Virus record (IMG/VR): IMGVR_UViG_3300020424_000350
Location: 1-63,434 of that record
Reading direction: 5' to 3' (one strand)
DNA from: a virus
Lineage: Duplodnaviria; Caudoviricetes
DNA: 63,434 nt
Below the pieces are notes generated by a model, which saw only the letters and a program-made list of their open reading frames with translations, was not told the DNA's origin and ran no database searches. This document shows, piece by piece, positions 6,970-57,433 of the stretch (position 1 is its first letter; each line of letters begins with the position of its first letter). A program made the translations under genes and the position numbers.

Positions 6970-7653
6970 ATGATAAATCAATGGTCGTATAGCCGTTTAA
7001 GTTGTTTTGAAAAATGTCCCAAACAAGCAGAATTTAAATTTGTTAAAAAATTAAAAGAGCCTGGAAGTCCAGCAATGGATAGAGGCAAACATATCCATAA
7101 ACTTTGTGAAGAGTATATTCGTGGGTTTCATCAAGAAATACCAGAAGAAATAAAAGGATTAGAAGATAATTTTAAAGAACTAAAAGAACTGCACGAAAGA
7201 GGACACGTGCTTTGTGAAGAAGATTGGGCTTGGGACGAAGAATGGAAACAAACAGGCTGGTTTGATTATAATACTTGGGGTAGAGCTAAAGTGGATGCTT
7301 TTGTATATGAAGAAGGTGTTTCTAAACAAGCTCGAGTTATTGATTTTAAAACAGGAAAGTTCGAAGGTAATGAAGAAGCTCATAGAGAACAGTGTGAATT
7401 ATACGGTTCTATAGCTTTAAAAAGGTTTCCAGAATTAGAAGAAATAGTTACTGAAATGTGGTATTTAGACCATAATAAAATAAGTAAGTTCGTTTACGAT
7501 ACACAAACAATAATTTTAAAAAGAGACCGTATAAACGCTAGAGCTATAAATATGACTACAGCTACAGAGTTTCCTGCTAATCCACATAAATGGAGATGTC
7601 GTTGGTGCCATTTTGGTAAAGAAGGGTTATGCGAAGAAAGAATTACAGATTAA
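6970..7653 (+). CDS. PD-(D/E)XK Cas4/RecB-like exonuclease
   Basis: WSYSRL..F.KCP, RG..IH, KVD...IDFKTGK, Q..LY, C-terminal CRWC...C Fe-S ligands. Confidence 0.85.
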   Translation: MINQWSYSRLSCFEKCPKQAEFKFVKKLKEPGSPAMDRGKHIHKLCEEYIRGFHQEIPEEIKGLEDNFKELKELHERGHVLCEEDWAWDEEWKQTGWFDYNTWGRAKVDAFVYEEGVSKQARVIDFKTGKFEGNEEAHREQCELYGSIALKRFPELEEIVTEMWYLDHNKISKFVYDTQTIILKRDRINARAINMTTATEFPANPHKWRCRWCHFGKEGLCEERITD

Positions 7654-7654
7654 T

Positions 7655-8251
7655 ATGAAACACCCATATTTTATACTTCCAGATGTTTTACCAGATATAG
7701 TGGTAGAAGATATAAAAAACATTGTTTTAAATTACGAAGAAATAGACGGTGGTGTGGGCGGTAATGTAACTCTGCAAGAAGAAGCCACAGTAGATAATGA
7801 AATAAGAAGATGTAAACAACGTTGGATTCCACCTAACGCAGAAGATACTAAAAAGATACATAATCTTTGTACAGAAATATTTGAAGAAGCAAACAGAAGA
7901 TGTTTTAGCGTAAATTTAGATAGGGTGTTTAATATGTTTTACGCTGAGTATCGAGCAGAGGATAATGGTTATTACGCTCAACATAAAGACTCTAATTTAG
8001 GTATTAACGGTGAACTGTACGATAGAAAACTTAGTATGACAATACAACTATCAGACTCTGCTGAATATGAGGGGGGTGATTTTGTTTTTTATGATGACCT
8101 ACATGGTTGGGCTCAACCCGACAAGGAACGTATTAGGAAAAAGGGTGCGGTGTTTGTTTTCCCTTCTTTTTTAGAACATGGTGTAAAACCTGTAACGAAA
8201 GGAATTAGAAAATGTTTCATAGCTTTTATCGAAGGACCCGCTTGGCGTTAA
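7655..8251 (+). CDS. 2OG-Fe(II) oxygenase (prolyl-hydroxylase/PKHD-like)
   Basis: HKD...RKLSMTIQLS...YEGGDF...FPSFLEHGVKPVTKGIR; start reassigned to ATG 7655. Confidence 0.88.
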   Translation: MKHPYFILPDVLPDIVVEDIKNIVLNYEEIDGGVGGNVTLQEEATVDNEIRRCKQRWIPPNAEDTKKIHNLCTEIFEEANRRCFSVNLDRVFNMFYAEYRAEDNGYYAQHKDSNLGINGELYDRKLSMTIQLSDSAEYEGGDFVFYDDLHGWAQPDKERIRKKGAVFVFPSFLEHGVKPVTKGIRKCFIAFIEGPAWR

Positions 8252-16593: not shown

Positions 16594-17427
16594 ATGCAAG
16601 GAATAGAGCAATTAACTAACATAATGACAGAGGGCGGTAGGTCAGATGTGCCTATGAGTATGAACTCCTCTCAAGGAATAGCAGGTATGATGCCACCGCA
16701 AGATATGGCGATGATGCAACAAGGACAAGTACCAAACCCTGCTGATTCTGCACCTCAGGGTATCGATATTAATAGCGACGCTGATATGTTAGCTTCAGCA
16801 GTGGTTGGTCGTACTAATGGAGATTTAGATGAGGCGGAGCAAGTATTAGAACAAAGTCTAATGTTAATTAAAACTGCTAAATCACAAACACAACAACCTA
16901 CAATGGCTGCTTACGGTAAACCTATTATGGCAGCAGAAGGTAAACCTATTCCTGACGGTAAAGAAGGAGCGGGTCTTAGAGCATTACCTAACGAAGTCGT
17001 AGAAAAAATGGGTTTTGTAAAAGCTTCAGAAGGTACAGAAATACCAACGCCAACAGAGGAACAACTCAGAGGAATGAGTCAAGCAGATTTTGATAGACTT
17101 TTTAATCTTTCACAAAGGGCTATTTCTGATATGGATAAAAATATATCTCCTAGTGAAAAACTACGTGAAGAAATGAGACGACTTATCATGGGTGCTATGG
17201 CAGCTAAAACACAAACTGGTCGCAGAGTTATGTCTGACAAAGATAGAGAAGTTATGTTAGAGGAACTAATTGTCAAACCCAGAGTAAAGCCAATGAGACC
17301 TAGTAACAAACTAGGAATGGCTTACGGTGGTGATGTTAAAAAAATGATGGGTGGCGGTCCGATGAAATATGCTGACGGTGGTGAAATGGAAGAATACGCG
17401 GGTGGCGGTTTAATCTATTTACCTTAA
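16594..17427 (+). CDS. Low-complexity putative virion cargo protein with (M/Y)AxGG repeats
   Basis: MAYGG, MMGGG, YADGG, YAGGG and AAEGK repeats. Confidence 0.55.
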   Translation: MQGIEQLTNIMTEGGRSDVPMSMNSSQGIAGMMPPQDMAMMQQGQVPNPADSAPQGIDINSDADMLASAVVGRTNGDLDEAEQVLEQSLMLIKTAKSQTQQPTMAAYGKPIMAAEGKPIPDGKEGAGLRALPNEVVEKMGFVKASEGTEIPTPTEEQLRGMSQADFDRLFNLSQRAISDMDKNISPSEKLREEMRRLIMGAMAAKTQTGRRVMSDKDREVMLEELIVKPRVKPMRPSNKLGMAYGGDVKKMMGGGPMKYADGGEMEEYAGGGLIYLP

Positions 17428-18029
17428 ATACCAGTTCTAAAAGTTAAATTAACTCTTTCTCCCCCGCCTTCTACATCAGGTACACTATGAGTAGCGAACA
17501 TCTGTGAGTGTCCATCGAATATAAATAAATCCCCGTCTTCCATTAAATAATTAGTTTCTTTACGAGTGTCTGTAGTATAGATATTCGTTTTACTTGTATT
17601 AGTTTCTTTCTTTATATGATAACCATATTCATGCCATTGAAATATTCTAGGCGCACCAAAAGAAAGCGATACAACTAAATCATTATACGTAGGTACTGTA
17701 TCAGAATGGTGCGGTATACCTTTACCGTCAGTACCATAGTACCCACATAAACAAAATTTAAAATCAACTTCTATATCTAATTCTCTCCGTATAAAAGTTT
17801 CTAAATTACCTTTGATATATTTCATAGGTTGTGTCCAAGCGTCTGGATTATAACTTTTACCTGCATACGAAAATTTACTATCACCGAAACCTCTAGTTTT
17901 TCTACCTTCGATAGTTCTACCTTCGTAAATACGTTTAGTAGGTTTATCCCATTTATCTATAAGAGGGTCGTAACCCTTCATAGCTCCTTTATAAAATTTA
18001 AGCAATCCAATCTCTCCATTTTTCATCAC
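17424..18029 (-). CDS. alkB: AlkB-family 2OG-Fe(II) dioxygenase (ALKBH2/3-like)
   Basis: YY...IPHHSD...VSLSFGAPR.F...GDLFIFDG.SQ...HSVP...RVNLTFR. Confidence 0.88.
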   Translation of the reverse strand: MMKNGEIGLLKFYKGAMKGYDPLIDKWDKPTKRIYEGRTIEGRKTRGFGDSKFSYAGKSYNPDAWTQPMKYIKGNLETFIRRELDIEVDFKFCLCGYYGTDGKGIPHHSDTVPTYNDLVVSLSFGAPRIFQWHEYGYHIKKETNTSKTNIYTTDTRKETNYLMEDGDLFIFDGHSQMFATHSVPDVEGGGERVNLTFRTGI

Positions 18030-21439: not shown

Positions 21440-22963
21440 ATGTCGTTGGCAGAGGAATTTGCCAAACGGTTTGCTGGACTTCGTCAAGCGTATGGGACTT
21501 TTACAGCCCTAAACGAAACTAGGGAAGACGGTAAGGCGAGTGGAAAAAATGTAACTATATCTAAAGAGCTATCCGATGAAGGACTGCTTAAACTTTGGGA
21601 GAACCATTTAAAAGGTAAACAAAGTATAGGAATCGTAGCCATTGATGAAAATAATCAATGTGTCTGGGGAGCTATAGATGTAGACGAATATCAACTAGAC
21701 TTAAAAGGACTAGCTAAAAAGATATCGAAACATAAACTACCACTTACCGTTTGTCGTAGTAAAAGCGGAGGAGCACATATTTATCTTTTCGTATCTGAGC
21801 CTGTCGAAGCTTCATTAATGCAACGTAAGTTAAGACAACTTGCTGCGTCAATAGGTTTCGGTCAGGCTGAGATATTTCCAAAACAAACACAACTATTATT
21901 AGATAGAGGGGACAGAGGTAGCACTCTGAATATGCCATATTTCGCAGGAGAGAACTCTACACGGTATGCATATAATGGAGAAGGACAAGCTATAAGTCCC
22001 GAAGAATTTTTAGAAAGAGCAGAAGAATTAATACTATCTCCCTCAGGGCTAGAGTCGTTAGAAGCTAGTCCTTTAAGTGAGGAGATAGATTGGATAGACC
22101 AATCACCCCCTTGCTTACAACATTTAGTCGTACAAGGGTTTCCTAAAGGTACAAGAAACTCGGGTCTGTTTAATTTAGGTGTATTCCTAAGAAAGAAATA
22201 TCCAGACGATTGGGAAAAGAGATTAGAAGAAGTAAATATAAAATATATGCAACCACCATTAGGTGCACAAGAAGTATTAACTATTGCAAAACAAGTAAAC
22301 AGAAAAGATTATTTCTATAAATGTAATGACCAACCTCTCGCGGGACACTGTAATAGTCCTCTTTGTAGAACTAGGAAGTATGGTATCGGAGCGGGAGGGG
22401 GGACACCATTGTTTAGTAATTTAACTAAACAAGATAGTGACCCGCCAATATGGTTTTTAGACGTAGAGGGCGGTAGGTTAGAACTAGAAACAGATGATTT
22501 ACTAAACCAAAATAGATTTCAGCGTAAGTGTATGGACGCTCTAAATAAAATACCACCGAAGGTAAAAGAAAACGTTTGGAGACAAATAATACAACAACTA
22601 CTAGACTCTTTAACGATTGTTGAAGTACCTAAAGAAGCGTCTACCGAAGGATTTTTCTTAGAGTTATTAGAAGCGTTTTGCACCGAAAGACCTGCGAGAG
22701 AACGTGATGAATTATTACTACATAAACCTTGGACGGATAAAGGCAAGACTTATTTTAGATTAGCAGACCTTATGGAGTATCTACATAGACATAACTTTAA
22801 AGAGTATCAAAGAAATAAATTAACTTCTAAATTAAAACAATTAAATGGAGAGCCATACTTTTTCAATATAAAAGGCAAAGGTGTAAACGTATGGCATATA
22901 GATGAATTTAAAGCTCAAGATGAGTCGCATGATTTACCTGAGTTTGATGATAACCCGATATGA
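21440..22963 (+). CDS. Archaeo-eukaryotic-type primase with PriCT-like domain
   Basis: WGAIDVD, RSKSGGAH, EIFPKQ, LNMPY; GTRN and Cys-rich segment. Confidence 0.8.
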   Translation: MSLAEEFAKRFAGLRQAYGTFTALNETREDGKASGKNVTISKELSDEGLLKLWENHLKGKQSIGIVAIDENNQCVWGAIDVDEYQLDLKGLAKKISKHKLPLTVCRSKSGGAHIYLFVSEPVEASLMQRKLRQLAASIGFGQAEIFPKQTQLLLDRGDRGSTLNMPYFAGENSTRYAYNGEGQAISPEEFLERAEELILSPSGLESLEASPLSEEIDWIDQSPPCLQHLVVQGFPKGTRNSGLFNLGVFLRKKYPDDWEKRLEEVNIKYMQPPLGAQEVLTIAKQVNRKDYFYKCNDQPLAGHCNSPLCRTRKYGIGAGGGTPLFSNLTKQDSDPPIWFLDVEGGRLELETDDLLNQNRFQRKCMDALNKIPPKVKENVWRQIIQQLLDSLTIVEVPKEASTEGFFLELLEAFCTERPARERDELLLHKPWTDKGKTYFRLADLMEYLHRHNFKEYQRNKLTSKLKQLNGEPYFFNIKGKGVNVWHIDEFKAQDESHDLPEFDDNPI

Positions 22964-24459
22964 CATTACCTAGTAAAACACAAGTTATTCTTGGACCGCC
23001 TGGAACTGGAAAGACGAGTACCTTACTTGGTCTTATAGAAGATGAATTAGAAAGTGGAACAGAACCTGATAAGATAGGGTTTTTTACCTTTACTAAAAAG
23101 GCGGTATCTGAGGGTAAAGATAGGGCTATAGCTAAGTTTGATAATATTTTAGATAAAGATTTACCTTATTTTAGGACTTTACATTCTCTAGCGTTTAGAC
23201 AACTAGGATTAAATAGAGAGAATGTTCTAGGTCGTAGGGATATATTAGATTTAAATGAAAAAATGAATTTAAAACTAACTGGGTCTAGTAATTCAGACGA
23301 CGGGCATTTATTTGCTATGACACATGATGATAGATTAGCGTTTATAGAAAACCTAGCACGTATGCGAGGGGTAGGTTTAAAAGACCAATGGCACGATGTA
23401 GAAGACGCTGTAGGTTGGTTTGAATTAGAGCGTTATGCGAAAGGATTAAATTTATTTAAACAAGATAGATTACTCGTAGATTACACAGATATGTTACAAG
23501 ACTTTCTTACTAAAGGAGAAATACCTAAGTTAGATGTTATGTATGTAGATGAAGCTCAAGACTTGTCCCCTTTACAGTGGTCGGTGGTGCGTAAGTTAGC
23601 AGAAAACTCTACTAGGGTTTATGTTGCAGGTGATGATGACCAAGCTATTTATAAGTGGGCGGGTGCTGATGTTGATTATTTAATTAGTAATTCTAAAGAC
23701 GCAATGATTTTAAAACAATCCTATCGTGTACCTTTTTCTGTGCATGATGTTGCTATGAGATGTATAAATCAGGTACGTTCTAGGGTACATAAAACATGGA
23801 ACCCTAGAGAACAAAAAGGTACAGTAAGGTGGGAACCAAACATAGATTTAGTAAACATGGAAAGCGGTGAATGGCTTGTATTAGCTCGGACAAACTACCT
23901 TTTAGAACAAGTAGATGAGTATTGCAGGAATGAAGGTTGGTTTTTTGAAGTGAAGGGTAGACCCAGTATTTCTGAAAAAAAGGTACAATCCGTGATAAAC
24001 TGGGAAAGACTTAGAGCAGGGGAAAAAGTAACTTTAGCTGAGTGTGTGAACATCATAAAACAGATTAAATTAAAAAATCCTAAAGTTATAGATACTATCG
24101 ATGAAAAAACGAAACTTGATATGAAAGATATGCTGTATTACTTTCCCGATATACCTCAAAGTGTTTGGTTTGACGCTTTTAGTTTATTAAGTGTAAAAGA
24201 AATCAGCTACATACGAGCCATGCTACGTAGAGGAGAAAAGATTACTAAAAAACCTAGAATAAAATTATCCACTATTCATGCCGCTAAAGGTGGTGAATGT
24301 GAGAATGTAGTATTGATTACAGATATTACTAATAGAGTTTATAAAAATTATCAGCAAAATCCTGATGATGAGAATAGAGTATTTTATGTTGCAGTTACGA
24401 GAACTAAAGAAAACTTGTACCTTATTGAACCTCAAAGTCCTCGCTGCTACCAAATGTAA
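22960..24459 (+). CDS. UvrD/Rep-like SF1 helicase
   Basis: GPPGTGKT, DEAQD, GDDDQAIY, QSYR, STIHAAKGGE, FYVAVTR. Confidence 0.93.
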   Translation: MTLPSKTQVILGPPGTGKTSTLLGLIEDELESGTEPDKIGFFTFTKKAVSEGKDRAIAKFDNILDKDLPYFRTLHSLAFRQLGLNRENVLGRRDILDLNEKMNLKLTGSSNSDDGHLFAMTHDDRLAFIENLARMRGVGLKDQWHDVEDAVGWFELERYAKGLNLFKQDRLLVDYTDMLQDFLTKGEIPKLDVMYVDEAQDLSPLQWSVVRKLAENSTRVYVAGDDDQAIYKWAGADVDYLISNSKDAMILKQSYRVPFSVHDVAMRCINQVRSRVHKTWNPREQKGTVRWEPNIDLVNMESGEWLVLARTNYLLEQVDEYCRNEGWFFEVKGRPSISEKKVQSVINWERLRAGEKVTLAECVNIIKQIKLKNPKVIDTIDEKTKLDMKDMLYYFPDIPQSVWFDAFSLLSVKEISYIRAMLRRGEKITKKPRIKLSTIHAAKGGECENVVLITDITNRVYKNYQQNPDDENRVFYVAVTRTKENLYLIEPQSPRCYQM

Positions 24460-24495: not shown

Positions 24496-24770
24496 ACTAT
24501 AGGTAAAGGAGATTAAAATGATAAATTGTGTTATTTGCGACCGTAAACGAGATGAGAAGTTCGGACATAACCCAAGTCCTGTGAAAGATGAGGGAAGGTG
24601 TTGTACCTTTTGCAATACCCATATTGTTATACCCGCACGTATATCTGAGTATATAAACAGAGAACGTGATTAATGGCTAATAAAACTATGACCATGAAGG
24701 AACACATGGAGATGATGGAGAGAATAAAAAATAAAGAAAAGAAACCACCGCGTAGGATAAAGGTAAAGAA

Positions 24771-25256
24771 ATGAATATATTTTATGTATCTAAAAGTCCT
24801 AAAGAAGCGGCAGAGTTTTTACCTGATAAACTGATAGTAAAAATGCCTTTAGAGTCTGCTCAGATGTTATGCACTGCTCATAGAATACATTCCGATGAAG
24901 ATTGGTGTGACGCTAATGGTATTTATAAAATAGCATATAAAAACCACCCATGTACGATATGGGCTAGAACTACTAGTGATAATTATTTTTGGCTATACAG
25001 TCATTTTATTGCTTTATGTTCTGAATATACTAGAAGATACGGCAAAGAACATTTAAGTTTTACAAAATTAGAAGAACCGCTTTCATATCTTCCCACTGAA
25101 ATAAAGTTAGGAGGATTAACGAAATTACCTCAGGCAATGCCTGATGAGTATAAACATGAGAACCCAGTTCTCGCTTACAGAGATTATGTTATACACGAAA
25201 AACATTATGCTAAGTGGGAAAAGGGTAGAGATAAACCAGATTGGTGGGAGGTGTAA
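24771..25256 (+). CDS. Pyrimidine dimer DNA glycosylase-like (DenV family)
   Basis: MNIFY...KMPLESAQMLCTAH...HPCTIW...EYTRRYGKEH...QAMPDEYK. Confidence 0.8.
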   Translation: MNIFYVSKSPKEAAEFLPDKLIVKMPLESAQMLCTAHRIHSDEDWCDANGIYKIAYKNHPCTIWARTTSDNYFWLYSHFIALCSEYTRRYGKEHLSFTKLEEPLSYLPTEIKLGGLTKLPQAMPDEYKHENPVLAYRDYVIHEKHYAKWEKGRDKPDWWEV

Positions 25257-26113
25257 TGTCATCAATAAGAAGAAAACTTACTGTCAATGAAAACGATAGT
25301 AAAAATACTAGAATGGACTTAGCGTCAGCAGGTATTCTAGGTAATTGGAGACCCGATGAGTTAGCTCATATGAGTCGTTTCGATAAAATAGCTTCACTAT
25401 GTATAGACGAAGCTAAAAGATTAGGTAGACCACTTAATACTTTTGAAGTTGGTTGTGGTGAGTGTTGGGCTTTGCGTTGTCTTTATAAGGCATATGTAAT
25501 AAAAAAGACTGACATAATCAGCTCTTATGTTGGATATGATATAGACCCTGCATGTGAGATGGAAAACCCTTATTGGTCTAATGCGGGTGGAGAACTAAAA
25601 GACTCTGCTTGGTTTAAAATATTTAATGGTGAAATACGTATACAAGATTTAACAGTAGACCCTATATTTAAATTAGACGATGAAAGTATAGATTTCTTTT
25701 GGTCTACGGAAGTTATAGAACACATGGGTAGGGAGTTTGTTCCTGCTTGGTTAGATGACGTTGCTAGGGTTATGAGACCAGGAGCATTAGGATATGTATC
25801 TACTCCTAACCATGATGGGTCTAATGATAAACTTCCCGAAGACCATGTATATGAGTGGGGTTTCGAAGAACTAAAAGAAGAACTAGAAAGAAACTTTGAG
25901 ATAGAAGCTGTTACTGGAACATTTATACAACTTCCTAGATTGAAAAAGTTTATGAATGACCCTGAGAATCACCATAGAGAATATGGAGGATGGACTCATA
26001 AACAATTTAGTATGCTAGAAGATAGATTCGGTAAGCAGTTTTTGAGAATGGCAGCAGCGACTTTTTATCCATCAGTAGCTAATAATTGTGCATGGAGAAT
26101 ACGTAAGAAGTAA
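25256..26113 (+). CDS. Class I SAM-dependent methyltransferase (small-molecule/UbiG-like type)
   Basis: EVGCG motif I, GYDID, EVIEH, MRPG, STPN; no NPPY/DPPY or PC catalytic motif. Confidence 0.85.
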   Translation: MSSIRRKLTVNENDSKNTRMDLASAGILGNWRPDELAHMSRFDKIASLCIDEAKRLGRPLNTFEVGCGECWALRCLYKAYVIKKTDIISSYVGYDIDPACEMENPYWSNAGGELKDSAWFKIFNGEIRIQDLTVDPIFKLDDESIDFFWSTEVIEHMGREFVPAWLDDVARVMRPGALGYVSTPNHDGSNDKLPEDHVYEWGFEELKEELERNFEIEAVTGTFIQLPRLKKFMNDPENHHREYGGWTHKQFSMLEDRFGKQFLRMAAATFYPSVANNCAWRIRKK

Positions 26114-27057
26114 TGACCTTTATACCAGAACAAGTAGAACTTTATAAGTATTGGATTTCCGAAAGGGAAGGTATACGAGTGTGTAAAGAATACTATGAAG
26201 ATAAACCGCCTTGGACAGAAGACGAGATACTCAGAAAGTTTAAGTTTTGTCAGGTATATAGAGAAGATGATAGGACTACCCGTTGGTTAAGAACTCATAT
26301 AAGAGACCCATTAAAAGATAAGCCCGAAGTATTTATGGCTACGGTTATCTTTAGGTGGTTTAATCTTATAGAAACGGGTAGAACTCTATTAGATAACAAC
26401 TTACATATAGAATGGGATAGAGAAAAAGCTATAGAACTTATACGAGTACAACCTAAATGGATTACGGGTGCTTATATTATCAAGACACCTAACCGTATGG
26501 ATAAAGTTACAGGAGTCGCTGAGTCTATAACTCATATGTGGAACGCTAAAGATTATATTTTAGAACAACTCTATAAATATAAAGAGCAAGACGGTGGGTC
26601 ATTACAAAAAGCATGGGAACTTATAAAAGAGTATCCGTATATGGGTCCATTTATGGCATACGAGGTAGTCACAGATTTACGATTTACTCATTTGTTAAAC
26701 GAAGCTACAGATATTTGTTCGTGGGCTAACGCTGGTCCAGGTGCAATGAGAGGGCTAAATAGGTTGACAGGTAGAGAACTAACTTTTTCAAAACGAAGTC
26801 ATGACTGGAACTCTGAAATGCAAGAGCTCTACGACATAGTAAAAGTTAATAACCATAATTGGTGGGTATTGAATAAAGGTATGTACGACTTAAAACATAA
26901 CTTCGAAATGAGAGAAGTAGAAGGAGGACTTTGTGAGTTCGATAAGTATTCTCGTATATTAAACGAGGAAGGAAGAACAAGGTCTATTTATAAACATAAT
27001 AAACATCTTCCTATAGTGGAAGACATAAAAGAAGGAGAAAGCATATGGGCAAAATGA
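26113..27057 (+). CDS. 5-hmdU DNA kinase-like protein (aGPT-Pplase1 helical domain)
   Basis: ERE.IR...PPWTED.IL..FKFCQVYREDDRTT...FRWFN...TGAY...GPFMAYEVVTD...GPGAMRGL...LCEFDKY. Confidence 0.85.
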   Translation: MTFIPEQVELYKYWISEREGIRVCKEYYEDKPPWTEDEILRKFKFCQVYREDDRTTRWLRTHIRDPLKDKPEVFMATVIFRWFNLIETGRTLLDNNLHIEWDREKAIELIRVQPKWITGAYIIKTPNRMDKVTGVAESITHMWNAKDYILEQLYKYKEQDGGSLQKAWELIKEYPYMGPFMAYEVVTDLRFTHLLNEATDICSWANAGPGAMRGLNRLTGRELTFSKRSHDWNSEMQELYDIVKVNNHNWWVLNKGMYDLKHNFEMREVEGGLCEFDKYSRILNEEGRTRSIYKHNKHLPIVEDIKEGESIWAK

Positions 27058-27266
27058 GTGATTTAGCCATAGAGCTCTTAGATACGTGGGGTGAGGAAGT
27101 CGATAAATACTATACTCAGTTCGTAGAAGTAGCGTATTTTCTAAACGTACCTGCAGATTATACTCAAGCGGTAGAGTTTATAAAAAGGAAGATACCCGTA
27201 CTTACAGACTCAGAGATAGGGTTTCTTATAGACGAAATAACAGGAATGCATAACTCACCAGTATGA
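27045..27266 (+). CDS. Hypothetical protein
   Basis: AAGGAG RBS; inside the modification cluster. Confidence 0.65.
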   Translation: MGKMSDLAIELLDTWGEEVDKYYTQFVEVAYFLNVPADYTQAVEFIKRKIPVLTDSEIGFLIDEITGMHNSPV

Positions 27267-28324
27267 ATACGTTAAAGGTAAGGAATGTAAATGAAGCCCT
27301 AGAAAGAGGGATTGATTTATTTTGTTTTCCAGATAATTATATAGAACAAGATAGTAGAAACGGTAAAACATTAGAACTAAATGAACCATTAACTACTGTT
27401 TATCAGAACCCTTGGGAACGAGTTTTATTTTGTACTAAACGAGATGCTAACCCATTTTTTCATTTTATAGAAAGTCTATGGATGTTGAATGGTAATAATG
27501 ATTTAGCACCACTTACATATTTTGTAAAATCTATGAAAGATTTTTCTGATGACGGTAGGACTTTAAATGCTGCTTATGGTAATAGGTGGAGAAGTTATTT
27601 TGGTGAAGACCAGATAGAACAAATTATAGATATATTAATTAAAAACCCTGACGATAGACGTGCAGTTTTACAGATGTGGGGTATAAAAGATTTAGCGGAT
27701 AAGTCTTTAGATGTGCCTTGTAATACGAATATTTATTTTAAAATCAGAAACGGAAAATTAAATATGACAGTCTGTAATCGCTCTAACGATATGGTGTGGG
27801 GGGCTTATGGTGCTAATGCAGTACATATGTCTATCCTTCAAGAATATATTGCTTTAGCTATAGGAGTCGATATAGGAGTCTATACACAGATTAGCGATAG
27901 CTTACACGTTTATCAGAATAAAGTTTGGGATAGAATAAAAGGAGCAGAACTTGACCCTTTAACATATAGACATTTAAGTTCTGATTACTGTGACGGTTAT
28001 GAGTATAGTCCACTCTATACGGATAAAGAAATATTCGATAAAGAATTACGAATATTTTTTAGTCCTTTTAATTTATGGTGGCTTGATATAGATGATGTTC
28101 CAGAACATACAGAAAAGAAAATAGATTTATCTAACTATAATTTTAATGAGCCTACTTTCAAAGACATAGCTATGCCTATGGTGAAAGCGTTTAGTGCTCA
28201 TAAAGAAAGAGATTACGATAAAGCGTATGAGTATGTATCTAAAATTACTGCTCAAGATTGGATGGTAGCTTGTTTCAATTGGATAACTAAGAGGGATAAG
28301 CTACATAATTTAAATAATAAATAA
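27263..28324 (+). CDS. Thymidylate synthase-fold enzyme, likely dUMP hydroxymethylase
   Basis: RDANPFF, AYG.RWR, DRRAV, PCN (catalytic Cys), RSNDMVWGAYGAN (Asn indicates a dUMP substrate), SLHVY. Confidence 0.8.
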   Translation: MNTLKVRNVNEALERGIDLFCFPDNYIEQDSRNGKTLELNEPLTTVYQNPWERVLFCTKRDANPFFHFIESLWMLNGNNDLAPLTYFVKSMKDFSDDGRTLNAAYGNRWRSYFGEDQIEQIIDILIKNPDDRRAVLQMWGIKDLADKSLDVPCNTNIYFKIRNGKLNMTVCNRSNDMVWGAYGANAVHMSILQEYIALAIGVDIGVYTQISDSLHVYQNKVWDRIKGAELDPLTYRHLSSDYCDGYEYSPLYTDKEIFDKELRIFFSPFNLWWLDIDDVPEHTEKKIDLSNYNFNEPTFKDIAMPMVKAFSAHKERDYDKAYEYVSKITAQDWMVACFNWITKRDKLHNLNNK

Positions 28325-28333
28325 GGAGTACTT

Positions 28334-28690
28334 ATGACAAGTAAGTGGGAAGCTATGAAAGATATAGCACAGAGAGACCTTGAAGCGTTAAAGAAAGCAG
28401 AAACTTCGTACGGAGATTCTTGGAAACGTAGAGGAGGTGTAGGAGCTTTTATGATGTTAGCTCGTAAGTTCGATAGGATAGAACACCAATCAGAAAAACA
28501 TGGTTGGGATATCTTTGAAGCTGGAGAAGCATTTAAAGGTGAAGCAGGTCTACTAGATGATATACGTGATTTACGTAGATATTTGTTACTTTGTGAACAG
28601 GAGATATTGGCACAGTCCGACCCTGAAACCATAGAGGAAATGTTTAGTACAACTATAATACAGGAGAGTCAAAATGACGATAATAGCTAA
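28334..28690 (+). CDS. Nucleotide modification-associated domain 1 (Nmad1/DUF1599-like; putative dNTP pyrophosphatase)
   Basis: K...YGDSWK..G...RK.DRI...D...DL..Y pattern; follows the TS-like gene. Confidence 0.65.
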   Translation: MTSKWEAMKDIAQRDLEALKKAETSYGDSWKRRGGVGAFMMLARKFDRIEHQSEKHGWDIFEAGEAFKGEAGLLDDIRDLRRYLLLCEQEILAQSDPETIEEMFSTTIIQESQNDDNS

Positions 28691-28886
28691 AGTTCTTAAA
28701 TTTTTTAAGAAAAACGATAAAATCGATGAAGCGTTAGATGAAGCAGCAGTCGATTTACCTAAGTTCGAGGAAAAGAAACATAGACCTAAAGCACCAGAAA
28801 AAACTCAACAAGTTGGTGTAGTTAGGGCTAAAGGTAAGAAACCTAGAGCTAAAAAGACTAAGATACAAACTAAAAATAAAAAGTGA
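28674..28886 (+). CDS. Hypothetical basic protein
   Basis: GGAG RBS; overlaps neighbours. Confidence 0.5.
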   Translation: MTIIAKVLKFFKKNDKIDEALDEAAVDLPKFEEKKHRPKAPEKTQQVGVVRAKGKKPRAKKTKIQTKNKK

Positions 28887-30742
28887 TTCAAGAACCTATG
28901 TTCGCACCTAAGAGTAATTGGGAAGTACCTGAGTTATTTCCTAATATACCTGAGACGAAAACTATCGCGGTAGATTTAGAAACCTGTGACCCTAACTTAT
29001 TAGTTAAGGGTCCAGGTTGGGCTACAGGTGACGGTTATGTTATAGGTGTGGGTATAGCTACTGAAGATTGGAAAGGTTATTTTCCTTTTAGACATCAAGG
29101 CGGGGGCAACTTAGACGAGGGGTTAGTCCTCAAATGGCTGTCTAAAACTCTTTCATCTAATAAACGTGACGTGGTCTTTCATAACTCATTGTACGATGTT
29201 GGGTGGTTAAAAAGAGAAGGTGTAGAGGTGTGTGGGAATATAGTAGATACTATGTTCGCAGCACCTCTCATCGATGAAAACAGACGTTCGTACTCACTAG
29301 ACTCATTGGGTGAGAGTTATTGTAATAATAAAAAAGATGAGTCTTTATTACAAGACGCGGCACTTGCTTATGGTATAAATCCTAAATCAGAAATGTATAA
29401 ACTACATTCTAAATATGTTGGACCTTATGGTGAACAAGACGCGGCACTTACATTAAAAGTTTGGGACAAATTAAAACAAGAAATAAAAAGTCAAGACTTA
29501 TCAAAGATATATGAATTAGAAACTAGTTTGATACCTCTACTTATAGAAATGAGGTGGCGAGGTGTAAGAGTAGATGAAGAAAAAGCTCACTCTATCTCGA
29601 AAGAACTATCTAAAAAAGAACAAAAGATTCAAGTAGAAATAAAAAGGAAGTACGGTTCGGAAGTCAATCTATGGGCTAATGCTTCTCTACAAGACATATT
29701 CGATAAAAATAAATTATTCTATCCTAGAACTGAAAAAGGTATGGCTTCTTTTCAAAGACAGTGGTTAGAAAGCCATACTCATGAACTACCTAGACTAATT
29801 GTAGAAGCTAGAAAATTAAATAAAGCTAGGACTACTTTTATAGATAAAATGATATTAGAACATTCACACGAAGGTCGTATACATGCAGAAGCTCATCCAT
29901 TACGTAGTGATAGAGGGGGCACGGTCAGTGGTCGGTTCAGCTATAGTAATCCTAATCTACAACAAGTACCTGCAAGAGACCCAGAGATTGGAGATATGAT
30001 ACGCTCTATCTTCATACCTGAAGAAGATTGTGAATGGGGTGTATTTGATTACTCACAACAAGAACCTAGATTAACTGTACATTATGCTGATAAAATGAAT
30101 TTAGCGGGAGCTAAAGAGGCAGTTGTAGAGTATACCGAAAGAAATGCAGACTTTCATCAGATAGTTGCAGATATGGCTAATATACCACGTAAACAAGCTA
30201 AGACGATAAATCTAGGACTTAGTTATGGAATGGGTAAAGAAAAATTAATTAATGAGTTAGGTCTAGATGATAACGAAGCACAGAAGCTATTCGACCAGTA
30301 CCATGAAAAAGTACCTTTTATAAAAGGACTACAAGACCAATGTACTCGAATAGCTACGGATAGGGGATATATAAAGACTTTAGGGGGTAGACGATGTAGG
30401 TTCGATTTATGGGAGAGTAGGTTTGAAAGAACTACACCTCTACCATTAGAAGAAGCTAAAAGTGAATATGGTGAAAGTCTAAAAAGGTCTTTCACTTATA
30501 AAGCTCTGAATAGATTGATTCAGGGTTCAGCGGCAGATATGACTAAGTTAGCTATGCTGGAGTTGTGGAAGGAAGGAATTATTCCACATCTACAAATACA
30601 TGATGAAGTTGATATATCTGTGAAAGATAAAACCGAAGCTAAGAAGGTGTGTGAGATTATGCGAGATTGTGTAGACTTAGTTGTACCTTTATTAGTTGAC
30701 TATGAACTTGGTCCATCATGGGGTCAAACGGAGGAGCAATAA
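28883..30742 (+). CDS. polA: Family A DNA polymerase with 3'-5' exonuclease
   Basis: DLET exonuclease motif; PNLQQ; DYSQQEPR (A); RKQAKTINLGLSYGMG (B); IHDE (C). Confidence 0.95.
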   Translation: MIQEPMFAPKSNWEVPELFPNIPETKTIAVDLETCDPNLLVKGPGWATGDGYVIGVGIATEDWKGYFPFRHQGGGNLDEGLVLKWLSKTLSSNKRDVVFHNSLYDVGWLKREGVEVCGNIVDTMFAAPLIDENRRSYSLDSLGESYCNNKKDESLLQDAALAYGINPKSEMYKLHSKYVGPYGEQDAALTLKVWDKLKQEIKSQDLSKIYELETSLIPLLIEMRWRGVRVDEEKAHSISKELSKKEQKIQVEIKRKYGSEVNLWANASLQDIFDKNKLFYPRTEKGMASFQRQWLESHTHELPRLIVEARKLNKARTTFIDKMILEHSHEGRIHAEAHPLRSDRGGTVSGRFSYSNPNLQQVPARDPEIGDMIRSIFIPEEDCEWGVFDYSQQEPRLTVHYADKMNLAGAKEAVVEYTERNADFHQIVADMANIPRKQAKTINLGLSYGMGKEKLINELGLDDNEAQKLFDQYHEKVPFIKGLQDQCTRIATDRGYIKTLGGRRCRFDLWESRFERTTPLPLEEAKSEYGESLKRSFTYKALNRLIQGSAADMTKLAMLELWKEGIIPHLQIHDEVDISVKDKTEAKKVCEIMRDCVDLVVPLLVDYELGPSWGQTEEQ

Positions 30743-36647: not shown

Positions 36648-37229
36648 CGAAAAGTTATATTTTAAACGACGAGCGGCATTAAAAAGTGCCGCGACTCGTG
36701 CGAAGGGGTTAGATTTCCGATTAATATTCGTTCGGAAACTAACAGAACTAGATAGTTTATATAAAAAACAACAAAGGCAAAAAAATGTACAAACTAAATA
36801 AAGAGAAAAAATGTATCAAGATAGGTATAGCAATCTATGATGAGCAGGGAGATAAGTTTCTAACTCAACATAGCCACCTAGCCCTATCAGATAAAACGAT
36901 AAACAAAATATATAAGGAGATTCAGGATGGCAAGAAAGTCTAAACAATTCAATGAGTTACGAGCGTTACGACGAACTATTCGTAAGAAAACTTCGATAGG
37001 TAAACGAAACCTAGCGACTAGTACGATGAATAAACATAAACGCAGGAGATTGGGTCTATGACAATTTACATAGTTTGGTTTTACGATAGTTATGGTAATA
37101 GAGATTTAGTCGCTATTACAAATGAACCTATGAAATGGTTGAAAGAAAATAATGAACAAAGAGTTAATGACGGGGAAGAACCAGAAGAAATCGATGACTT
37201 TGAAATTGAAGCACATGGAGCGTATATCT

Positions 37230-37682
37230 ATGACTAATAAATTTACATGGAACGAAAAAGAACAAACATACTTTCAAAAAAATTATCCTAAAGGGTGGTG
37301 TGTAAGTATAGGTATTTCACCTTATGGTAAAAGTCCTGAGTATCAAGTATCAGATGGAATAGAAAGGACTACAAGTTATGATTTTTATTGTTTAGATGAA
37401 GCTTTAGAAGAATGTGCAAGATTAAATAAATATGACGATTGGTTTAAACGAGCCCCTAAACACCCTGACTTAAAAGCAGGGTATATTTTAGATATATGGG
37501 CTGAACTAGGATATGAACAATCTATATCAGAAAAAGGTAATCACGAGCGTAGTAATTTCGAAGACGAACTCTACGATAGATTTGGTCTAGAGTGCGAGAA
37601 CTGGGGAGAAATAATTTGTACAACCCGAGACGGCTACGAAAAAGTGATAAACGAGATAAAGGCAGCGATAGAAAATGTATGA
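37230..37682 (+). CDS. Hypothetical protein
   Basis: Start reassigned to ATG 37230. Confidence 0.6.
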   Translation: MTNKFTWNEKEQTYFQKNYPKGWCVSIGISPYGKSPEYQVSDGIERTTSYDFYCLDEALEECARLNKYDDWFKRAPKHPDLKAGYILDIWAELGYEQSISEKGNHERSNFEDELYDRFGLECENWGEIICTTRDGYEKVINEIKAAIENV

Positions 37683-46361: not shown

Positions 46362-47417
46362 ATGGCTGAACCACAATTTAAACCAGCGAGACCACCTATA
46401 GAACAATTTATATCAGATGTTCGTGGTCAGGGGATATTACAAACTTTAAACCCTAATTTAAAAAACGACCCCGTATTTCAAAAGGTTTCTTCAGCTTTAG
46501 ATTTTATAATACCAGACCCCGACAACCCGTTGGACTTTCTCGGTCCTGGTGGTAAAGTAGCTGCTGGATTTTTTAGTAATTTACCTTTACCGTTAGCTAG
46601 AAAAATAAAAGCTACGATGAAGAAAATAGAAGATTTAGAATTAAAAGTAAAAAGAGAACGAGCAGCTAGAAAATCCGATGGACCAGCCGCTTCTACAGCT
46701 TTAGAGAAAGCGGAAAACTCATTAAAAGCACAAAACGAAAAATTAGATAAACTGTTTGAAGAGGGTGGTGTAAAAGGTCCTCCTCGAGTAATTAAAAATA
46801 AAGAAGAACAATTAGCCGAAACATTAAGTAAAGATAATGTATATCACGGTGGCATAGCAGGATTAAAAACTGAAGCGGGTGAACAATTTTTAAAAAGACC
46901 ACCAGCAGCTACAGATGATGCAGGAGTAGCTCAATCAACGGGAGGTATTTATTCAGTATTAAATGTTGATGACCCTAGATTTTTTAATTTCTCTGGTAGA
47001 AATATCGACCCTAAAAAATCAGGTTACATAGTTTCACCTGAGTTAAGAAGAACGGTAGACGCGGCAGATATGCCAAAAGATTTACAAAACAAACTATACG
47101 ATAGATTGTCTGAATTACAACAAGTCGATGACTTTGGAGGATTAACTCCTTTAGAAAGATATACTTACTTTAATATTTCTAAAATCTTAGGTAAAGAACC
47201 GATTAAAAATTCAGGATTAGTTCCAGGAGTGTTTCAAAAAGAAACTGGAGATATTTTCAGACAAGAAGGATTCGATTCTATATTATTCCCCAGACGACCT
47301 AACTTCAAAGGTGAGGGTAAAACTTTGATATCTGTTGCTGACGACAACTTGCGTATAGCGGATGAAATAAAGTATGATGAGGTCGCTGATTTTATTAGAA
47401 AAATGAGTGGAAAATAA
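46362..47417 (+). CDS. Protein with possible ART-PolyVal-like C-terminal domain
   Basis: VYHGG...GGIYS...EGFDSILF. Confidence 0.4.
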   Translation: MAEPQFKPARPPIEQFISDVRGQGILQTLNPNLKNDPVFQKVSSALDFIIPDPDNPLDFLGPGGKVAAGFFSNLPLPLARKIKATMKKIEDLELKVKRERAARKSDGPAASTALEKAENSLKAQNEKLDKLFEEGGVKGPPRVIKNKEEQLAETLSKDNVYHGGIAGLKTEAGEQFLKRPPAATDDAGVAQSTGGIYSVLNVDDPRFFNFSGRNIDPKKSGYIVSPELRRTVDAADMPKDLQNKLYDRLSELQQVDDFGGLTPLERYTYFNISKILGKEPIKNSGLVPGVFQKETGDIFRQEGFDSILFPRRPNFKGEGKTLISVADDNLRIADEIKYDEVADFIRKMSGK

Positions 47418-47418
47418 A

Positions 47419-47712
47419 ATGCCAAGGAAAAAAGAAAAATCAATTAGACGTACCACAGGTAAAGGCGGTAATTATAGACCGACTAAAGCTGGTGCGGGAA
47501 TGACTAAAAAAGGTGTTGCTGCCTATAGACGTAAAAATCCTGGAAGTAAATTAAAAACTGCTGTTACAGGTAAAGTCAAAAAAGGTAGTAAAGCTGCAAA
47601 AAGAAGAAAGTCATACTGTGCTCGTTCTGCAGGACAGATGAAAAAGTTTCCGAAGGCAGCAAAAAATCCTAATTCTAGGTTGAGACAAGCAAGACGAAGA
47701 TGGAAGTGTTAA
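47419..47712 (+). CDS. Highly basic small protein
   Basis: GMTKKGVAAYRRKNPGSKLK...RRKSYCARS...RRWKC. Confidence 0.75.
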   Translation: MPRKKEKSIRRTTGKGGNYRPTKAGAGMTKKGVAAYRRKNPGSKLKTAVTGKVKKGSKAAKRRKSYCARSAGQMKKFPKAAKNPNSRLRQARRRWKC

Positions 47713-47892
47713 ATGCCAAAACATAGTAAAAAAGGTAAAAGTAAACGTCCAGGATTATGGGCGAATATTCATGCAAAACGTAAACGTATAAAAGCTGGTA
47801 GTGGTGAACGTATGCGTAAACCAGGAAGTAAAGGTGCCCCAACTAAAAAGAATTTTAAACAAGCAAGGTCAACATCTAAGAGAAGGAGGTAG
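47713..47892 (+). CDS. Highly basic small protein (59 aa, not in ORF track)
   Basis: GLWANIHAKRKRIKAGSGERMRKPGSKGAPT. Confidence 0.75.
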   Translation: MPKHSKKGKSKRPGLWANIHAKRKRIKAGSGERMRKPGSKGAPTKKNFKQARSTSKRRR

Positions 47893-47894
47893 GT

Positions 47895-48086
47895 ATGGCT
47901 GAAAAAAGAGCAAAGAGAAAGAAAAAAGCTGCTAAGAGAGGTGGTGCTAAACCAACTAACCCAGCTTTGTATGCTAGAGTAAAAGCAGAAGCTAAACGTA
48001 AATTTAAAGTTTACCCTTCAGCTTATGCTAATGGTTGGTTAGTAAGAGAATATAAAAAACGTGGTGGAGGTTATCGTAGTTCATAA
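47895..48086 (+). CDS. Highly basic small protein
   Basis: PTNPALYARVKAEAKRKFKVYPSAYANGWLVREYKKRGG. Confidence 0.75.
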   Translation: MAEKRAKRKKKAAKRGGAKPTNPALYARVKAEAKRKFKVYPSAYANGWLVREYKKRGGGYRSS

Positions 48087-48262
48087 TGGAATTTATTTGG
48101 TTTCCACTTGTGTTATGTTGTATCGTCGCTATGATTGGAGAACACTCTAACCCTAGAGGTATGAATATTTTTTGGTATAAAGTAACTATAAAAACTAGAG
48201 AATATACAAAAGCATTAACAGAATATGACTCTGGTAATAACGATGGAAACGGACCTAGATAA
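48086..48262 (+). CDS. Small membrane protein (58 aa, not in ORF track)
   Basis: MEFIWFPLVLCCIVAMIG; TAATG coupling on both sides. Confidence 0.55.
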   Translation: MEFIWFPLVLCCIVAMIGEHSNPRGMNIFWYKVTIKTREYTKALTEYDSGNNDGNGPR

Positions 48263-48570
48263 TGGCTAAACCTAAAGGTGGATTAACTGCTTGGTTCGGT
48301 AAAGGACCAAAAGGTGATTGGGTAGATATAGGAGCACCTAAGAAAAAAGGTAAGTTCCAAAAATGCGGTCGTAAATCTGCTAAAGGTAAATCTAAAAGGA
48401 AATACCCTAAATGTGTTCCACGAGCTAAAGCTAGAACTATGACAGCCGCACAAAGAAGAAGTGCTGTGCGTAGAAAAAGAGCAGCAGGGAATCCAGGAGG
48501 CAAACCTACAAACGTAAGAACTATTGTTAAAAAGAGGAAAACCAATGGCAGAAAAAAGAAAAAAGCGTAG
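48262..48570 (+). CDS. Highly basic small protein
   Basis: GLTAWF...WVDI...CGR...YPKCVP...RRKR. Confidence 0.75.
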   Translation: MAKPKGGLTAWFGKGPKGDWVDIGAPKKKGKFQKCGRKSAKGKSKRKYPKCVPRAKARTMTAAQRRSAVRRKRAAGNPGGKPTNVRTIVKKRKTNGRKKKKA

Positions 48571-48727
48571 TAAGTTAAAACAACTAACGCAAAGACAAAA
48601 AGATACTTTAAAAAAGCATAGTAAACATCACACGGCTAAACATATGACCGAAATGAGAAAAATGATGAAAGCGGGTAAAACTTTTACCCAAGCTCATAAA
48701 GGTGCTATGAAAAAAGTAGGAAAATAA
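48545..48727 (+). CDS. Highly basic His-rich small protein
   Basis: LTQRQKDTLKKHSKHHTAKHM...FTQAHKGAMKKVGK. Confidence 0.7.
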   Translation: MAEKRKKRSKLKQLTQRQKDTLKKHSKHHTAKHMTEMRKMMKAGKTFTQAHKGAMKKVGK

Positions 48728-48728
48728 A

Positions 48729-50258: not shown

Positions 50259-50284
50259 GTAAATAAAGATTATGATTTCGGACT

Positions 50285-52690: not shown

Positions 52691-52769
52691 TGGCATATCA
52701 TAAAAAGAAAAAGAAAAAGAAAAAGAAGACTAGTAAATAATCAAAAGATTAACATATAATACACGGATT

Positions 52770-52907
52770 ATGGAAAATAAGATAAAAGAAGTAAAGCAAT
52801 CAAAGCTGATTACTGATTCCGAAGGGAAAGTTGTAGGTGAGGAAATTCAAATAAAAGGCTCAGGTGCAGCGACAAAAGGAAACAAGTTTTATAGATACAT
52901 TAAGTAA
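52770..52907 (+). CDS. Small protein (45 aa, not in ORF track)
   Basis: C-terminal KGSGAATKG motif; follows TATAAT. Confidence 0.5.
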   Translation: MENKIKEVKQSKLITDSEGKVVGEEIQIKGSGAATKGNKFYRYIK

Positions 52908-52910
52908 TTA

Positions 52911-53532: not shown

Positions 53533-53548
53533 TCATGGAGGAGGTACC

Positions 53549-54433: not shown

Positions 54434-54434
54434 A

Positions 54435-54935: not shown

Positions 54936-54966
54936 TTTGTATTTAATATAAAGAGGTAAGAAAAAA

Positions 54967-55506: not shown

Positions 55507-55519
55507 TTAGGAGGACATC

Positions 55520-56428: not shown

Positions 56429-56443
56429 TCTTAAACGATTAGT

Positions 56444-57088: not shown

Positions 57089-57105
57089 TAATTTAGGAGC
57101 TTAAA

Positions 57106-57432: not shown

Positions 57433-57433
57433 T

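Follow-up and report, generated by a model that had tools for sequence, protein, structure and literature searches.

A kinase-less cassette joining a Hen1-like methyltransferase to aGPT-Pplase1 and a thymidylate-synthase-fold enzyme in HTVC023P-type marine phages, and its possible part in thymidine hypermodification

We analysed a viral genome of 63,434 bp (IMG/VR record IMGVR_UViG_3300020424_000350; this whole stretch of DNA is called 'the window'), and in it a cassette of about 4 kb built around a methyltransferase gene. The window is the complete genome of a marine podovirus of the HTVC023P type; its completeness, assumed in a first-pass annotation made from the letters alone, was put at 100% by CheckV, although the record is linear, without end repeats; nearly all genes are on the plus strand. 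Cultured HTVC023P-type phages infect Pelagibacter. The cassette lies between the gene for a UvrD-type helicase (22960-24459) and that for a family A DNA polymerase (PolA; 28883-30742). It consists of six tightly packed open reading frames (ORFs) on the plus strand, as the first-pass annotation had laid them out, and three of these are at the centre of this report. They encode a class I S-adenosylmethionine (SAM)-dependent methyltransferase of 285 aa (25256-26113, plus strand; Methyltransf_23/11 match), hereafter 'MTase'; an aGPT-Pplase1 protein of 314 aa with a helix-hairpin-helix glycosylase-like fold (26113-27057, plus strand; PF18723, called HMUDK_hel in Pfam, E 9e-43), hereafter 'Pplase1'; and a thymidylate-synthase-fold enzyme of 353 aa (27263-28324, plus strand; PF00303 Thymidylat_synt, E 3.2e-25; phrog_5131, E 3.9e-106), hereafter 'TS homologue'. 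The family assignments made earlier for the first and the last of these were borne out. The MTase and Pplase1 genes overlap by 1 nt at 26113, within a TAATG at 26111-26115, and a second TAATG at 25254-25258 joins the stop of the preceding Pyr_excise-like gene to the ATG of the MTase. The Pplase1 and TS genes are 206 bases apart, with one small ORF between them.

Because of the TAATG overlap at 25254-25258, the start of the MTase is most likely the ATG at 25256 rather than a TTG at 25241. A ribosome-binding site (GGGAGGTG) precedes this ATG, and alignments with relatives begin at residues 3-6 of the version read from the TTG. Few proteins belong to the family: of 1.84 billion cluster representatives, 220 matched at E ≤ 1e-3 and 17 at E ≤ 1e-30. 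The 120 close relatives among the matches listed are marine metagenome proteins without names, and the protein is encoded in none of 50,697 cultured-phage records. Scans for distant relatives with the single sequence gave nothing useful. A 32-member alignment showed G66, G68, D146, E155, H156, N185, H197 and G221 to be invariant and E152, T183 and P184 nearly so, and the family has a conserved N-terminal motif of its own (NxNDSKNTR...LAHxSRY). When the family profile was compared with PDB sequences, the top seven matches were all Hen1 or HENMT1 proteins (4xrp, 5wy0, 4xcx, 3jwj, 3jwh, 3jwg and 3jwi; E 2e-9 to 2e-8), followed by phosphoethanolamine N-methyltransferases and UbiG. The alignments with Hen1 pair the motifs ExxEH, (S/T)TPN and DHxYEW (also written DHxFEW), and E152, E155, H156 and H197 of the MTase line up with the Mg/Mn ligands of Hen1. 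As given in PMC10781085, these ligands are Glu796, Glu799, His800 and His860 in HEN1 and E132, E135, H136 and H181 in the human protein, and the metal is also held by the 2'- and 3'-OH of the ribose. The SAM-motif and metal-ligand residues are kept in all 107 distinct sequences.

An AlphaFold2 (AF2) model of the MTase (pLDDT 90.7) has a Rossmann-type fold. Its best structural neighbour is CmoM (4htf; Z 17.7, root-mean-square deviation 4.0, 212 residues aligned), the next rows of the fold search stand at Z 15.9, and plant HEN1 (3htx) follows at Z 15.7. CmoM (4HTF), according to PMC10516636, turns 5-carboxymethoxyuridine (cmo5U) in tRNA into mcmo5U by adding a methyl group to the carboxyl at the end of the C5 side chain. 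A Foldseek search of PDB with the model returned generic class I methyltransferases only (template modelling score about 0.5), and the single sequence matched no NCBIfam model at E ≤ 0.1. We take the NCBIfam library to hold a Hen1 model. Because the other fold matches are generic and the single sequence matches no NCBIfam model, the protein is called 'Hen1-like' here, and not a Hen1. It shares with Hen1/HENMT1 the four metal ligands (ExxEH...H), the TPN and DHxFEW motifs and a fold match. Unlike Hen1, which has an N-terminal or RNA-binding region and a Pnkp partner, it is a methyltransferase core only, and its genomic company is made of DNA-modification genes; the Pfam lists for the genome contain no polynucleotide kinase, phosphatase or ligase family that could be such a partner. 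CmoM has in common with it the best structural match, and O-methylates the end of a uridine C5 substituent within a polynucleotide; it differs, however, in that identity is 14% with no relationship detected at the sequence level, and its target is a carboxylate on RNA. Both nearest neighbours are O-methyltransferases acting on polynucleotides. The first-pass annotation had called the enzyme a small-molecule-type methyltransferase, a label that does not fit a family profile closest to Hen1, a nucleic-acid hydroxyl O-methyltransferase. We found no longer, fused forms of the MTase, which is weak evidence; in ten longer weak relatives, nothing but generic methyltransferase domains, one LAGLIDADG and one DUF3383 domain was present. 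A prediction of the MTase-Pplase1 complex, run without controls, scored 0.00 and says nothing either way.

The gene coupled to the MTase had been read earlier as an 'aGPT-Pplase1/5-hmdU DNA kinase-like' protein, that is, as a possible kinase of 5-hydroxymethyl-2'-deoxyuridine (5-hmdU) in DNA. The first half of this reading holds and the second was ruled out. The 314-aa protein is the helical aGPT-Pplase1 domain alone (profile positions 4-278 of the 281 of PF18723). It has no Walker A motif (such motifs occur in the window only in ORFs at 11773, 22993 and 37311), and it aligns to gp50 of phage PaMx11 (42% over 279 aa), not to the kinase gp49. The TAATG coupling that had been reported between a kinase and the MTase is likewise present, with Pplase1, not a kinase, as the coupled gene. 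In Pfam, PaMx11 gp49 matches AAA_33, Zeta_toxin and HMUDK_HMUD1, and gp50 matches HMUDK_hel. We take HMUDK_hel (PF18723) to be the family formerly named aGPT-Pplase clade 1, and the label 'aGPT-Pplase1 domain-containing protein' given in phage records to the gene matched by Pplase1 fits this equivalence. GenBank labels for the gene vary: hypothetical protein, aGPT-Pplase1, 5-hmdU DNA kinase helical domain and terminase small subunit are all in use. The Pfam name leads stand-alone clade 1 Pplase proteins to be misread as kinases. As shown in PMC8989533, 5-hmdU in DNA is phosphorylated by P-loop kinases (M6 gp54, PaMx11 gp49, ViI gp67/gp243, SP10 gp186 and phiW-14 gp37).

In SP10, M6 and PaMx11 a Pplase1-type domain lies next to the 5-hmdU DNA kinase or is fused to it; in SP10 it is fused behind the kinase (PMC5889632, Table 3). 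The clade 1 Pplase of M6, gp55, was omitted from a reconstitution in lysates without loss of product, the kinase and gp51 being enough (PMC8989533). The AF2 model of Pplase1 (pLDDT 88.6) has a helix-hairpin-helix glycosylase fold, and its best fold matches are tied at Z of about 10-11: QNG1, of queuine salvage (11.3), an archaeal Ogg (11.1), and the 5-phosphomethyl-2'-deoxyuridine (5-PmdU) glycinyltransferase PUGT (8z2n; 10.4 over 229 residues). Among 21 family members Cys274 is invariant and Glu270 nearly so, and both are kept in 106 of 106 distinct sequences of the clade. By hhalign, E270 and C274 line up with E243 and C247 of PUGT (probability 29%, E 5.8e-4), which are the metal-binding Glu243 and the catalytic Cys247 (PMC11472151). 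The conservation of this pair and its alignment with PUGT suggest that Pplase1 may be more than a passive DNA binder. PUGT (PaMx11 gp46, Pfam ADDT) has the glycosylase-like fold in common with Pplase1, and the Glu-x3-Cys motif of Pplase1 lines up with its Glu/Cys pair at the low probability just given. The two differ in that Pplase1 belongs to clade 1 (PF18723) and not to ADDT, the Pfam model of which does not match the ORF, and in that no phosphorylated substrate can be made in the window's system. No fused forms of Pplase1 were found either, again weak evidence.

Aligned over 97% of its length, the TS homologue shares 42-43% of its residues with enzymes of M6-like phages; its identity to PaMx11 gp51 is 41.5%. 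Its closest solved protein is MilA, a CMP 5-hydroxymethylase (E 1e-23), against E 1.6e-19 for the best thymidylate synthase match and about 2e-13 for E. coli thymidylate synthase, and it falls below all eight NCBIfam equivalog cut-offs for thymidylate synthase (101.6 bits against 174.55, and 77 against 327, among them). All 103 distinct relatives have retained Cys153, which is the catalytic residue, and Arg173, Ser174, Asp176 and Asn185. Asn185 stands at the pyrimidine-reading position, where MilA has an Asp; an Asn in that position presumably reads uracil in this enzyme family. The DNA of M6/PaMx11-type phages is described in PMC8989533 as carrying bases derived from 5-hmdU. By its kinship, the TS homologue is probably a dUMP 5-hydroxymethylase.

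Two enzymes of the M6, ViI and PaMx11 systems, the kinase and the amino acid:DNA transferase (ADDT), are missing from the window's pathway. The models for the 5-hmdU DNA kinase (5-HMUDK, PF18748) and AAA_33 gave no match in the window at E ≤ 10, and tblastn with PaMx11 gp49 gave chance matches only (E ≥ 3.8). Custom hidden Markov models (HMMs), built from five kinases and five transferases, were run with all filters off against the 463 six-frame stop-to-stop segments of at least 40 aa; the best kinase match had E 0.83, and the transferase model found only the paralogous Pplase1 ORF (E 0.038). ADDT (PF18724) and aGPT-Pplase3 (PF18746) had no match at E ≤ 1, in agreement with the earlier statement that no amino acid:DNA transferase is recognisable in the genome. 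The same statement for pyridoxal 5'-phosphate (PLP) enzymes, radical SAM enzymes and deoxynucleoside monophosphate (dNMP) kinases was upheld by Pfam scans: among the 79 ORFs of at least 70 aa outside the cassette, none of these families, nor any HD-domain family, was matched at E ≤ 1e-3. The flavin adenine dinucleotide (FAD) lyase and the acetyltransferase of the PaMx11/M6 clusters are not among the window's genes. As a positive control, the kinase HMM recovered an independent kinase in a control contig, and kinases in other contigs; an initial genome search did, however, miss a weak (29-bit) ADDT in one other genome (locus L087/L173). Four more CheckV-complete genomes of the clade, and the contig L242 introduced below, are also without kinase or transferase. 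An ORF of 176 aa at 37152-37682 (plus strand) carries a Walker-A-like GISPYGKS about 54 residues in, and was assigned to no kinase family in the Pfam scan that covered it.

The comparison with PaMx11 and M6 (Lee et al. 2018, 2021) places these genes in a known frame. The TS-family hydroxymethylase (about 42% identical), aGPT-Pplase1 (about 41-42%) and PolA (about 41%) are shared, and so is the order X-Pplase1-TS near PolA, in which X and Pplase1 overlap by 1 nt. In PaMx11 these are the kinase gp49, the Pplase1 gp50 and the TS-family enzyme gp51, and base 39786 belongs to both gp49 and gp50. Where those phages have the P-loop 5-hmdU DNA kinase as X, the window has the Hen1-like MTase; moreover, the PaMx11/M6 clusters have an ADDT, a FAD lyase, an acetyltransferase, a PLP enzyme and a radical SAM enzyme, all of which the window lacks. 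From the matching gene order and the one-base overlap we conclude that the MTase occupies the slot of the kinase. This corrects the first-pass annotation, in which it was said to stand in place of the transferase.

The order is highly conserved. A set of 80 IMG/VR loci with the MTase was found, in all of which Pplase1 follows it; the TS homologue is present in 78 (the other two end about 1.5 kb past the MTase), PolA in 77 and the helicase in 79. A survey of 254 loci yielded 247 with a match to the MTase HMM, which contained 131 distinct MTase ORFs: 107 in the main architecture, 5 in cut loci that fit it, 8 distant family members, and 11 weak matches (23-95 bits) that were dropped as generic methyltransferases. 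In each of the 107 distinct complete loci, MTase, Pplase1 and TS homologue lie in this order on a single strand, with a median MTase-Pplase1 stop-to-stop gap of -24 nt, and a match to the kinase or ADDT HMM (E ≤ 1e-4) within 6-7 kb on each side occurs in none of the 107. The synteny that had been proposed for relatives, MTase-kinase-TS, is real in these 107 loci for its outer members, with Pplase1 in the middle.

Of the main loci, 106 include PolA, which is 50-99% identical to that of the window in 105 and 27% identical in the last, L242. This IMG/VR contig (34 kb, 78% complete) has the same MTase-Pplase1-TS triad and no match to the helicase or to the last ORF of the cassette, and it represents a second lineage with the triad, unless the module was transferred. 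Among cultured phages, those nearest to the window are 023Pt_psg01, DSL-LC04 and the Pelagibacter phages HTVC027P and HTVC023P (TerL 51-60% identical, PolA 48-55%). HTVC023P and 023Pt_psg01 have the helicase, two small ORFs and PolA, without the cassette; the block of about 4 kb is therefore an insertion in one part of the HTVC023P-type group. Besides the possible source, the window stretch was found nearly identical (0.79-0.95 of sampled words) in 14 marine DNA runs from at least six studies. In three runs, RNA libraries gave contigs, 90-97% alike, that include portions of the genes for the MTase, Pplase1, the TS homologue, the last cassette ORF and PolA. They were not counted as expression, since DNA carry-over is possible.

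On the MTase HMM, all eight distant family members exceed 200 bits. Their identity to the window's MTase is 26-43%, and the phages they come from have a PolA at most about 25% identical. Seven of them adjoin TS, kinase or ADDT genes, the exception (L088) being a fragment, 13% complete, that shows the MTase alone. The order is Pplase1-TS-ADDT-MTase-DSP phosphatase-HMUDK in L084; Pplase1-inositol-1-phosphate synthase-MTase-ADDT-DSP phosphatase-HMUDK-Nmad1-PolA in L085 (4873-8862), where the synthase is a myo-inositol-1-phosphate synthase (PF01658, E 8e-38); and Pplase1-TS-HMUDK-ADDT-GFO/IDH/MocA oxidoreductase-DegT aminotransferase-MTase in L086 (1817-6759). The gene sets of L085 and L086 hint at cyclitol- or amino-sugar-like groups attached to thymidine. 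In L087/L173, a complete genome of 49 kb, the weak ADDT (29 bits) mentioned above is followed by HMUDK (PF18748, E 4e-23), MTase and TS. L172 has the order HMUDK-MTase-small P-loop protein-TS, and L174 and L175 have MTase-small P-loop protein-TS. Since seven of the eight sit in hypermodification clusters, the MTase family is tied to thymidine modification independently of the pelagiphage clade. The small P-loop protein between MTase and TS (L174:8024-8476, L175:1636-2100 and L172:1374-1847) has about 150 aa and an N-terminal GxDGxGKT/S, and is a divergent 5-hmdU kinase or else a short protein resembling dNMP kinases; it was found neither in the window (best E 0.89) nor in loci other than these three.

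Part of the cassette has been reported before. Wittmers et al. 2022 (PMC9599517) describe, in HTVC023P-type pelagiphages of clades V, VIII and IX, a TS and an aG/PT-PPlase1 as 'partner' auxiliary metabolic genes close to PolA, and presume an M6-like function. Their phage group and their cassette are very probably those analysed here. The main text of that paper contains no occurrence of 'methyltransferase', and both its uses of 'kinase' concern a histidine kinase, although its figures and data sets may show more; relative to that main text, what is new here is the associated MTase and the absence of the kinase. As partners in metavirome clusters, Lee et al. 2021 (PMC8989533) name radical SAM, PLP, flavin, acetyltransferase, amidoligase and glutaminotransferase proteins, and four uses of 'methyltransferase' in that article concern other enzymes. 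A literature search found no described pathway joining 5-HMUDK or 5-hydroxymethyluracil phage DNA with a methyltransferase, O-methylation or Hen1, though figures and supplements may show more, and no paper on 5-methoxymethyl-deoxyuridine in bacteriophage.

Three other ORFs complete the cassette. The first (24771-25256, plus strand, 161 aa) is Pyr_excise-like, of the T4 endonuclease V family (PF03013, E 3.2e-9; phrog_624, E 1e-55), in agreement with its earlier description as a DenV-like glycosylase; it is a variable accessory, present in 38 of the 80 loci and in 46 of the 107 distinct main-architecture loci. A 73-aa ORF between Pplase1 and the TS homologue (orf73; 27045-27266, plus strand) had tblastn matches in 48 of the 80 related loci and none in Pfam, PHROG or NCBIfam. 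The last, orf118 (28334-28690, plus strand, 118 aa), is conserved in 77 of the 80 and 105 of the 107 distinct loci. Its earlier designation as Nmad1-like is weakly supported: a pairwise BLASTP gave E 6e-4 to the DUF1599 region of a protein from L085, and DUF1599 is found on 11% of the members of its neighbour cluster in the atlas, but PF07659 did not match at E ≤ 10. Directly upstream of the cassette, at 24518-24673 (plus strand), a 51-aa ORF with CxxC ... CxxC may form a zinc ribbon; it occurs in 3 of the 80 related loci. Outside the cassette, an AlkB-like 2OG-Fe(II) oxygenase (17424-18029, minus strand; PF13532, E 5.7e-17) adjoins a 480-aa minus-strand ORF, and a 2OG-FeII_Oxy_3 match (E 2.9e-13) lies at 7613-8251 (plus strand). 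The regions 1-24459 and 46362-63381 also encode tail proteins like Pam3 gp32/33/34, two SU10-type adaptor proteins and a Cpn10/GroES homologue, as well as DUF932, AEP-type primase and SNF2-related helicase proteins.

We tentatively favour a pathway, to which we give somewhat less than an even chance, in which 5-hmdU, made available by a dUMP hydroxymethylase, receives an O-methyl group from the MTase while in DNA and so becomes 5-methoxymethyl-dU. The TS homologue would convert dUMP to 5-hmdUMP, host enzymes would phosphorylate this further, and the phage PolA would incorporate 5-hmdU. The Hen1-like, metal-dependent MTase would then methylate the oxygen of the 5-CH2-OH group, as its family likeness and gene position suggest; the product, 5-methoxymethyl-2'-deoxyuridine, would have a nominal nucleoside mass of 272 u by our own arithmetic. 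The translationally coupled Pplase1 may bind the DNA and flip the base out for the MTase. A kinase and an O-methyltransferase could address the same nucleophile, the 5-CH2-OH oxygen, and a metal site of the Hen1 type could hold the hydroxyl, perhaps together with O4, for methyl transfer. To our knowledge, 5-methoxymethyl-2'-deoxyuridine has not been found in nature, and all thymidine hypermodification pathways worked out so far pass through 5-phosphomethyl-dU and an amino acid:DNA transferase.

Several points weigh against this proposal. 5-hmdU has no vicinal diol, the group that Hen1 coordinates. The chemistry is predicted, 5-hmdUMP being the product that homology would assign to the TS homologue, and a DNA methyl ether of this kind was not on record in the literature search. 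The single MTase sequence matched no NCBIfam model, and beyond CmoM and Hen1 its fold matches are generic class I methyltransferases. The Cys/Glu pair of Pplase1, aligned with the catalytic pair of PUGT, may indicate an enzyme that attaches something first. Lastly, the MTase co-occurs with 5-HMUDK in five of the eight distant members (L084, L085, L086, L173 and L172), four of these with ADDT, so the ancestral job of the MTase family may have been to methylate an appended group and not 5-hmdU itself.

In a different arrangement, Pplase1 would be a Cys-dependent transferase, a paralogue of ADDT, that attaches a nucleophile to the C5 methylene of 5-hmdU without phosphorylation, after which the MTase would methylate a hydroxyl or carboxyl of the appended group, and the base so completed would exceed 5-methoxymethyl-dU in size. 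The E270/C274 pair, invariant in 106 of 106 sequences and aligned with E243/C247 of PUGT, the fold shared with that enzyme (Z 10.4), and the methylation by CmoM of a carboxyl on a C5 side chain would all suit such a role, as would the distant clusters that place the MTase beside ADDT and genes potentially making cyclitol- or amino-sugar-like nucleophiles. We nevertheless regard it as unlikely: hydroxide leaves poorly unless activated, M6 gp55, which belongs to the same clade, is described as dispensable for transfer in lysates (PMC8989533), the hhalign probability is just 29%, and no gene for the synthesis of a special nucleophile is seen in the window's Pfam lists. It is just as unlikely, in our estimate, that the DNA holds plain 5-hmdU or only thymine and that the MTase acts elsewhere, on the 3'-terminal 2'-OH of an RNA, on a protein or on a small molecule; a Hen1-type role would then be to protect or repair tRNA or small RNAs during infection. 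In favour of this, the closest solved sequences are those of Hen1 proteins, the MTase has no physical link to DNA, and the searches for fused forms turned up none. Such a role would, however, leave unexplained the translational coupling to Pplase1 and the order fixed in 107 of 107 distinct loci, the position of seven of eight distant members beside TS, kinase or ADDT genes, and the arrival of the MTase with TS and Pplase1 as one cassette absent from HTVC023P, and the genome's Pfam lists contain no Pnkp-like RNA repair partner.

The TS homologue could also be an ordinary dTMP synthase, an auxiliary metabolic gene, with no base modification and an unrelated role for the MTase and Pplase1. Its Pfam and PHROG names are those of thymidylate synthase, and its catalytic Cys is conserved, as are the residues that bind dUMP; yet it lies below all the NCBIfam equivalog cut-offs, is closer to a solved hydroxymethylase than to any thymidylate synthase, and pairs with Pplase1 as in thymidine-modifying phages (compare PMC9599517), which makes this reading very unlikely. 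The first-pass annotation had proposed an O-methylated end product, for which a dedicated MTase conserved in synteny makes a reasonable case. In its more specific form, a kinase makes 5-PmdU and the MTase esterifies the phosphate with a methyl group (or displacement removes the phosphate). The case for a 5-PmdU methyl ester falls away because no enzyme makes its phosphate: no P-loop kinase of this or a related family is found in the window or in the four other complete clade genomes, and the supposed kinase is the helical Pplase1 protein. In L087/L173 a true HMUDK lies directly upstream of a family MTase, so that cooperation between the two may exist elsewhere, but that cluster also has a weak ADDT (29 bits); for the window we consider the ester barely credible. 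A role for the MTase as an activator, with methanol as the leaving group, was set aside, as by our own reasoning methoxide leaves no better than hydroxide.

What remains is a variant of the thymidine hypermodification systems without kinase or transferase and with a Hen1-like MTase; its product is plausibly a methyl ether of 5-hmdU. The broader claim, that HTVC023P-type pelagiphages replace part of their thymidine with 5-methoxymethyl-dU by means of a kinase-independent Hen1-like MTase and a base-flipping Pplase1 partner, is possible, and we hold it with more doubt than belief.

If it is true, phage DNA modification gains the chemistry of an ether on a DNA base and a class of enzyme new to it, and the clade 1 Pplase gains a first role, as an adaptor presenting 5-hmdU to the kinase or methyltransferase encoded upstream of it. 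HTVC023P-type pelagiphages are among the most abundant phages of the surface ocean, and the cassette is common: IMG/VR contains 107 distinct versions of it, from a widespread group of ocean phages with kinship to those of SAR11 bacteria. For this reason the sequencing of marine viromes and their restriction-based handling could be biased by a modified base, which would also bear on how these phages escape the nucleases of their hosts.

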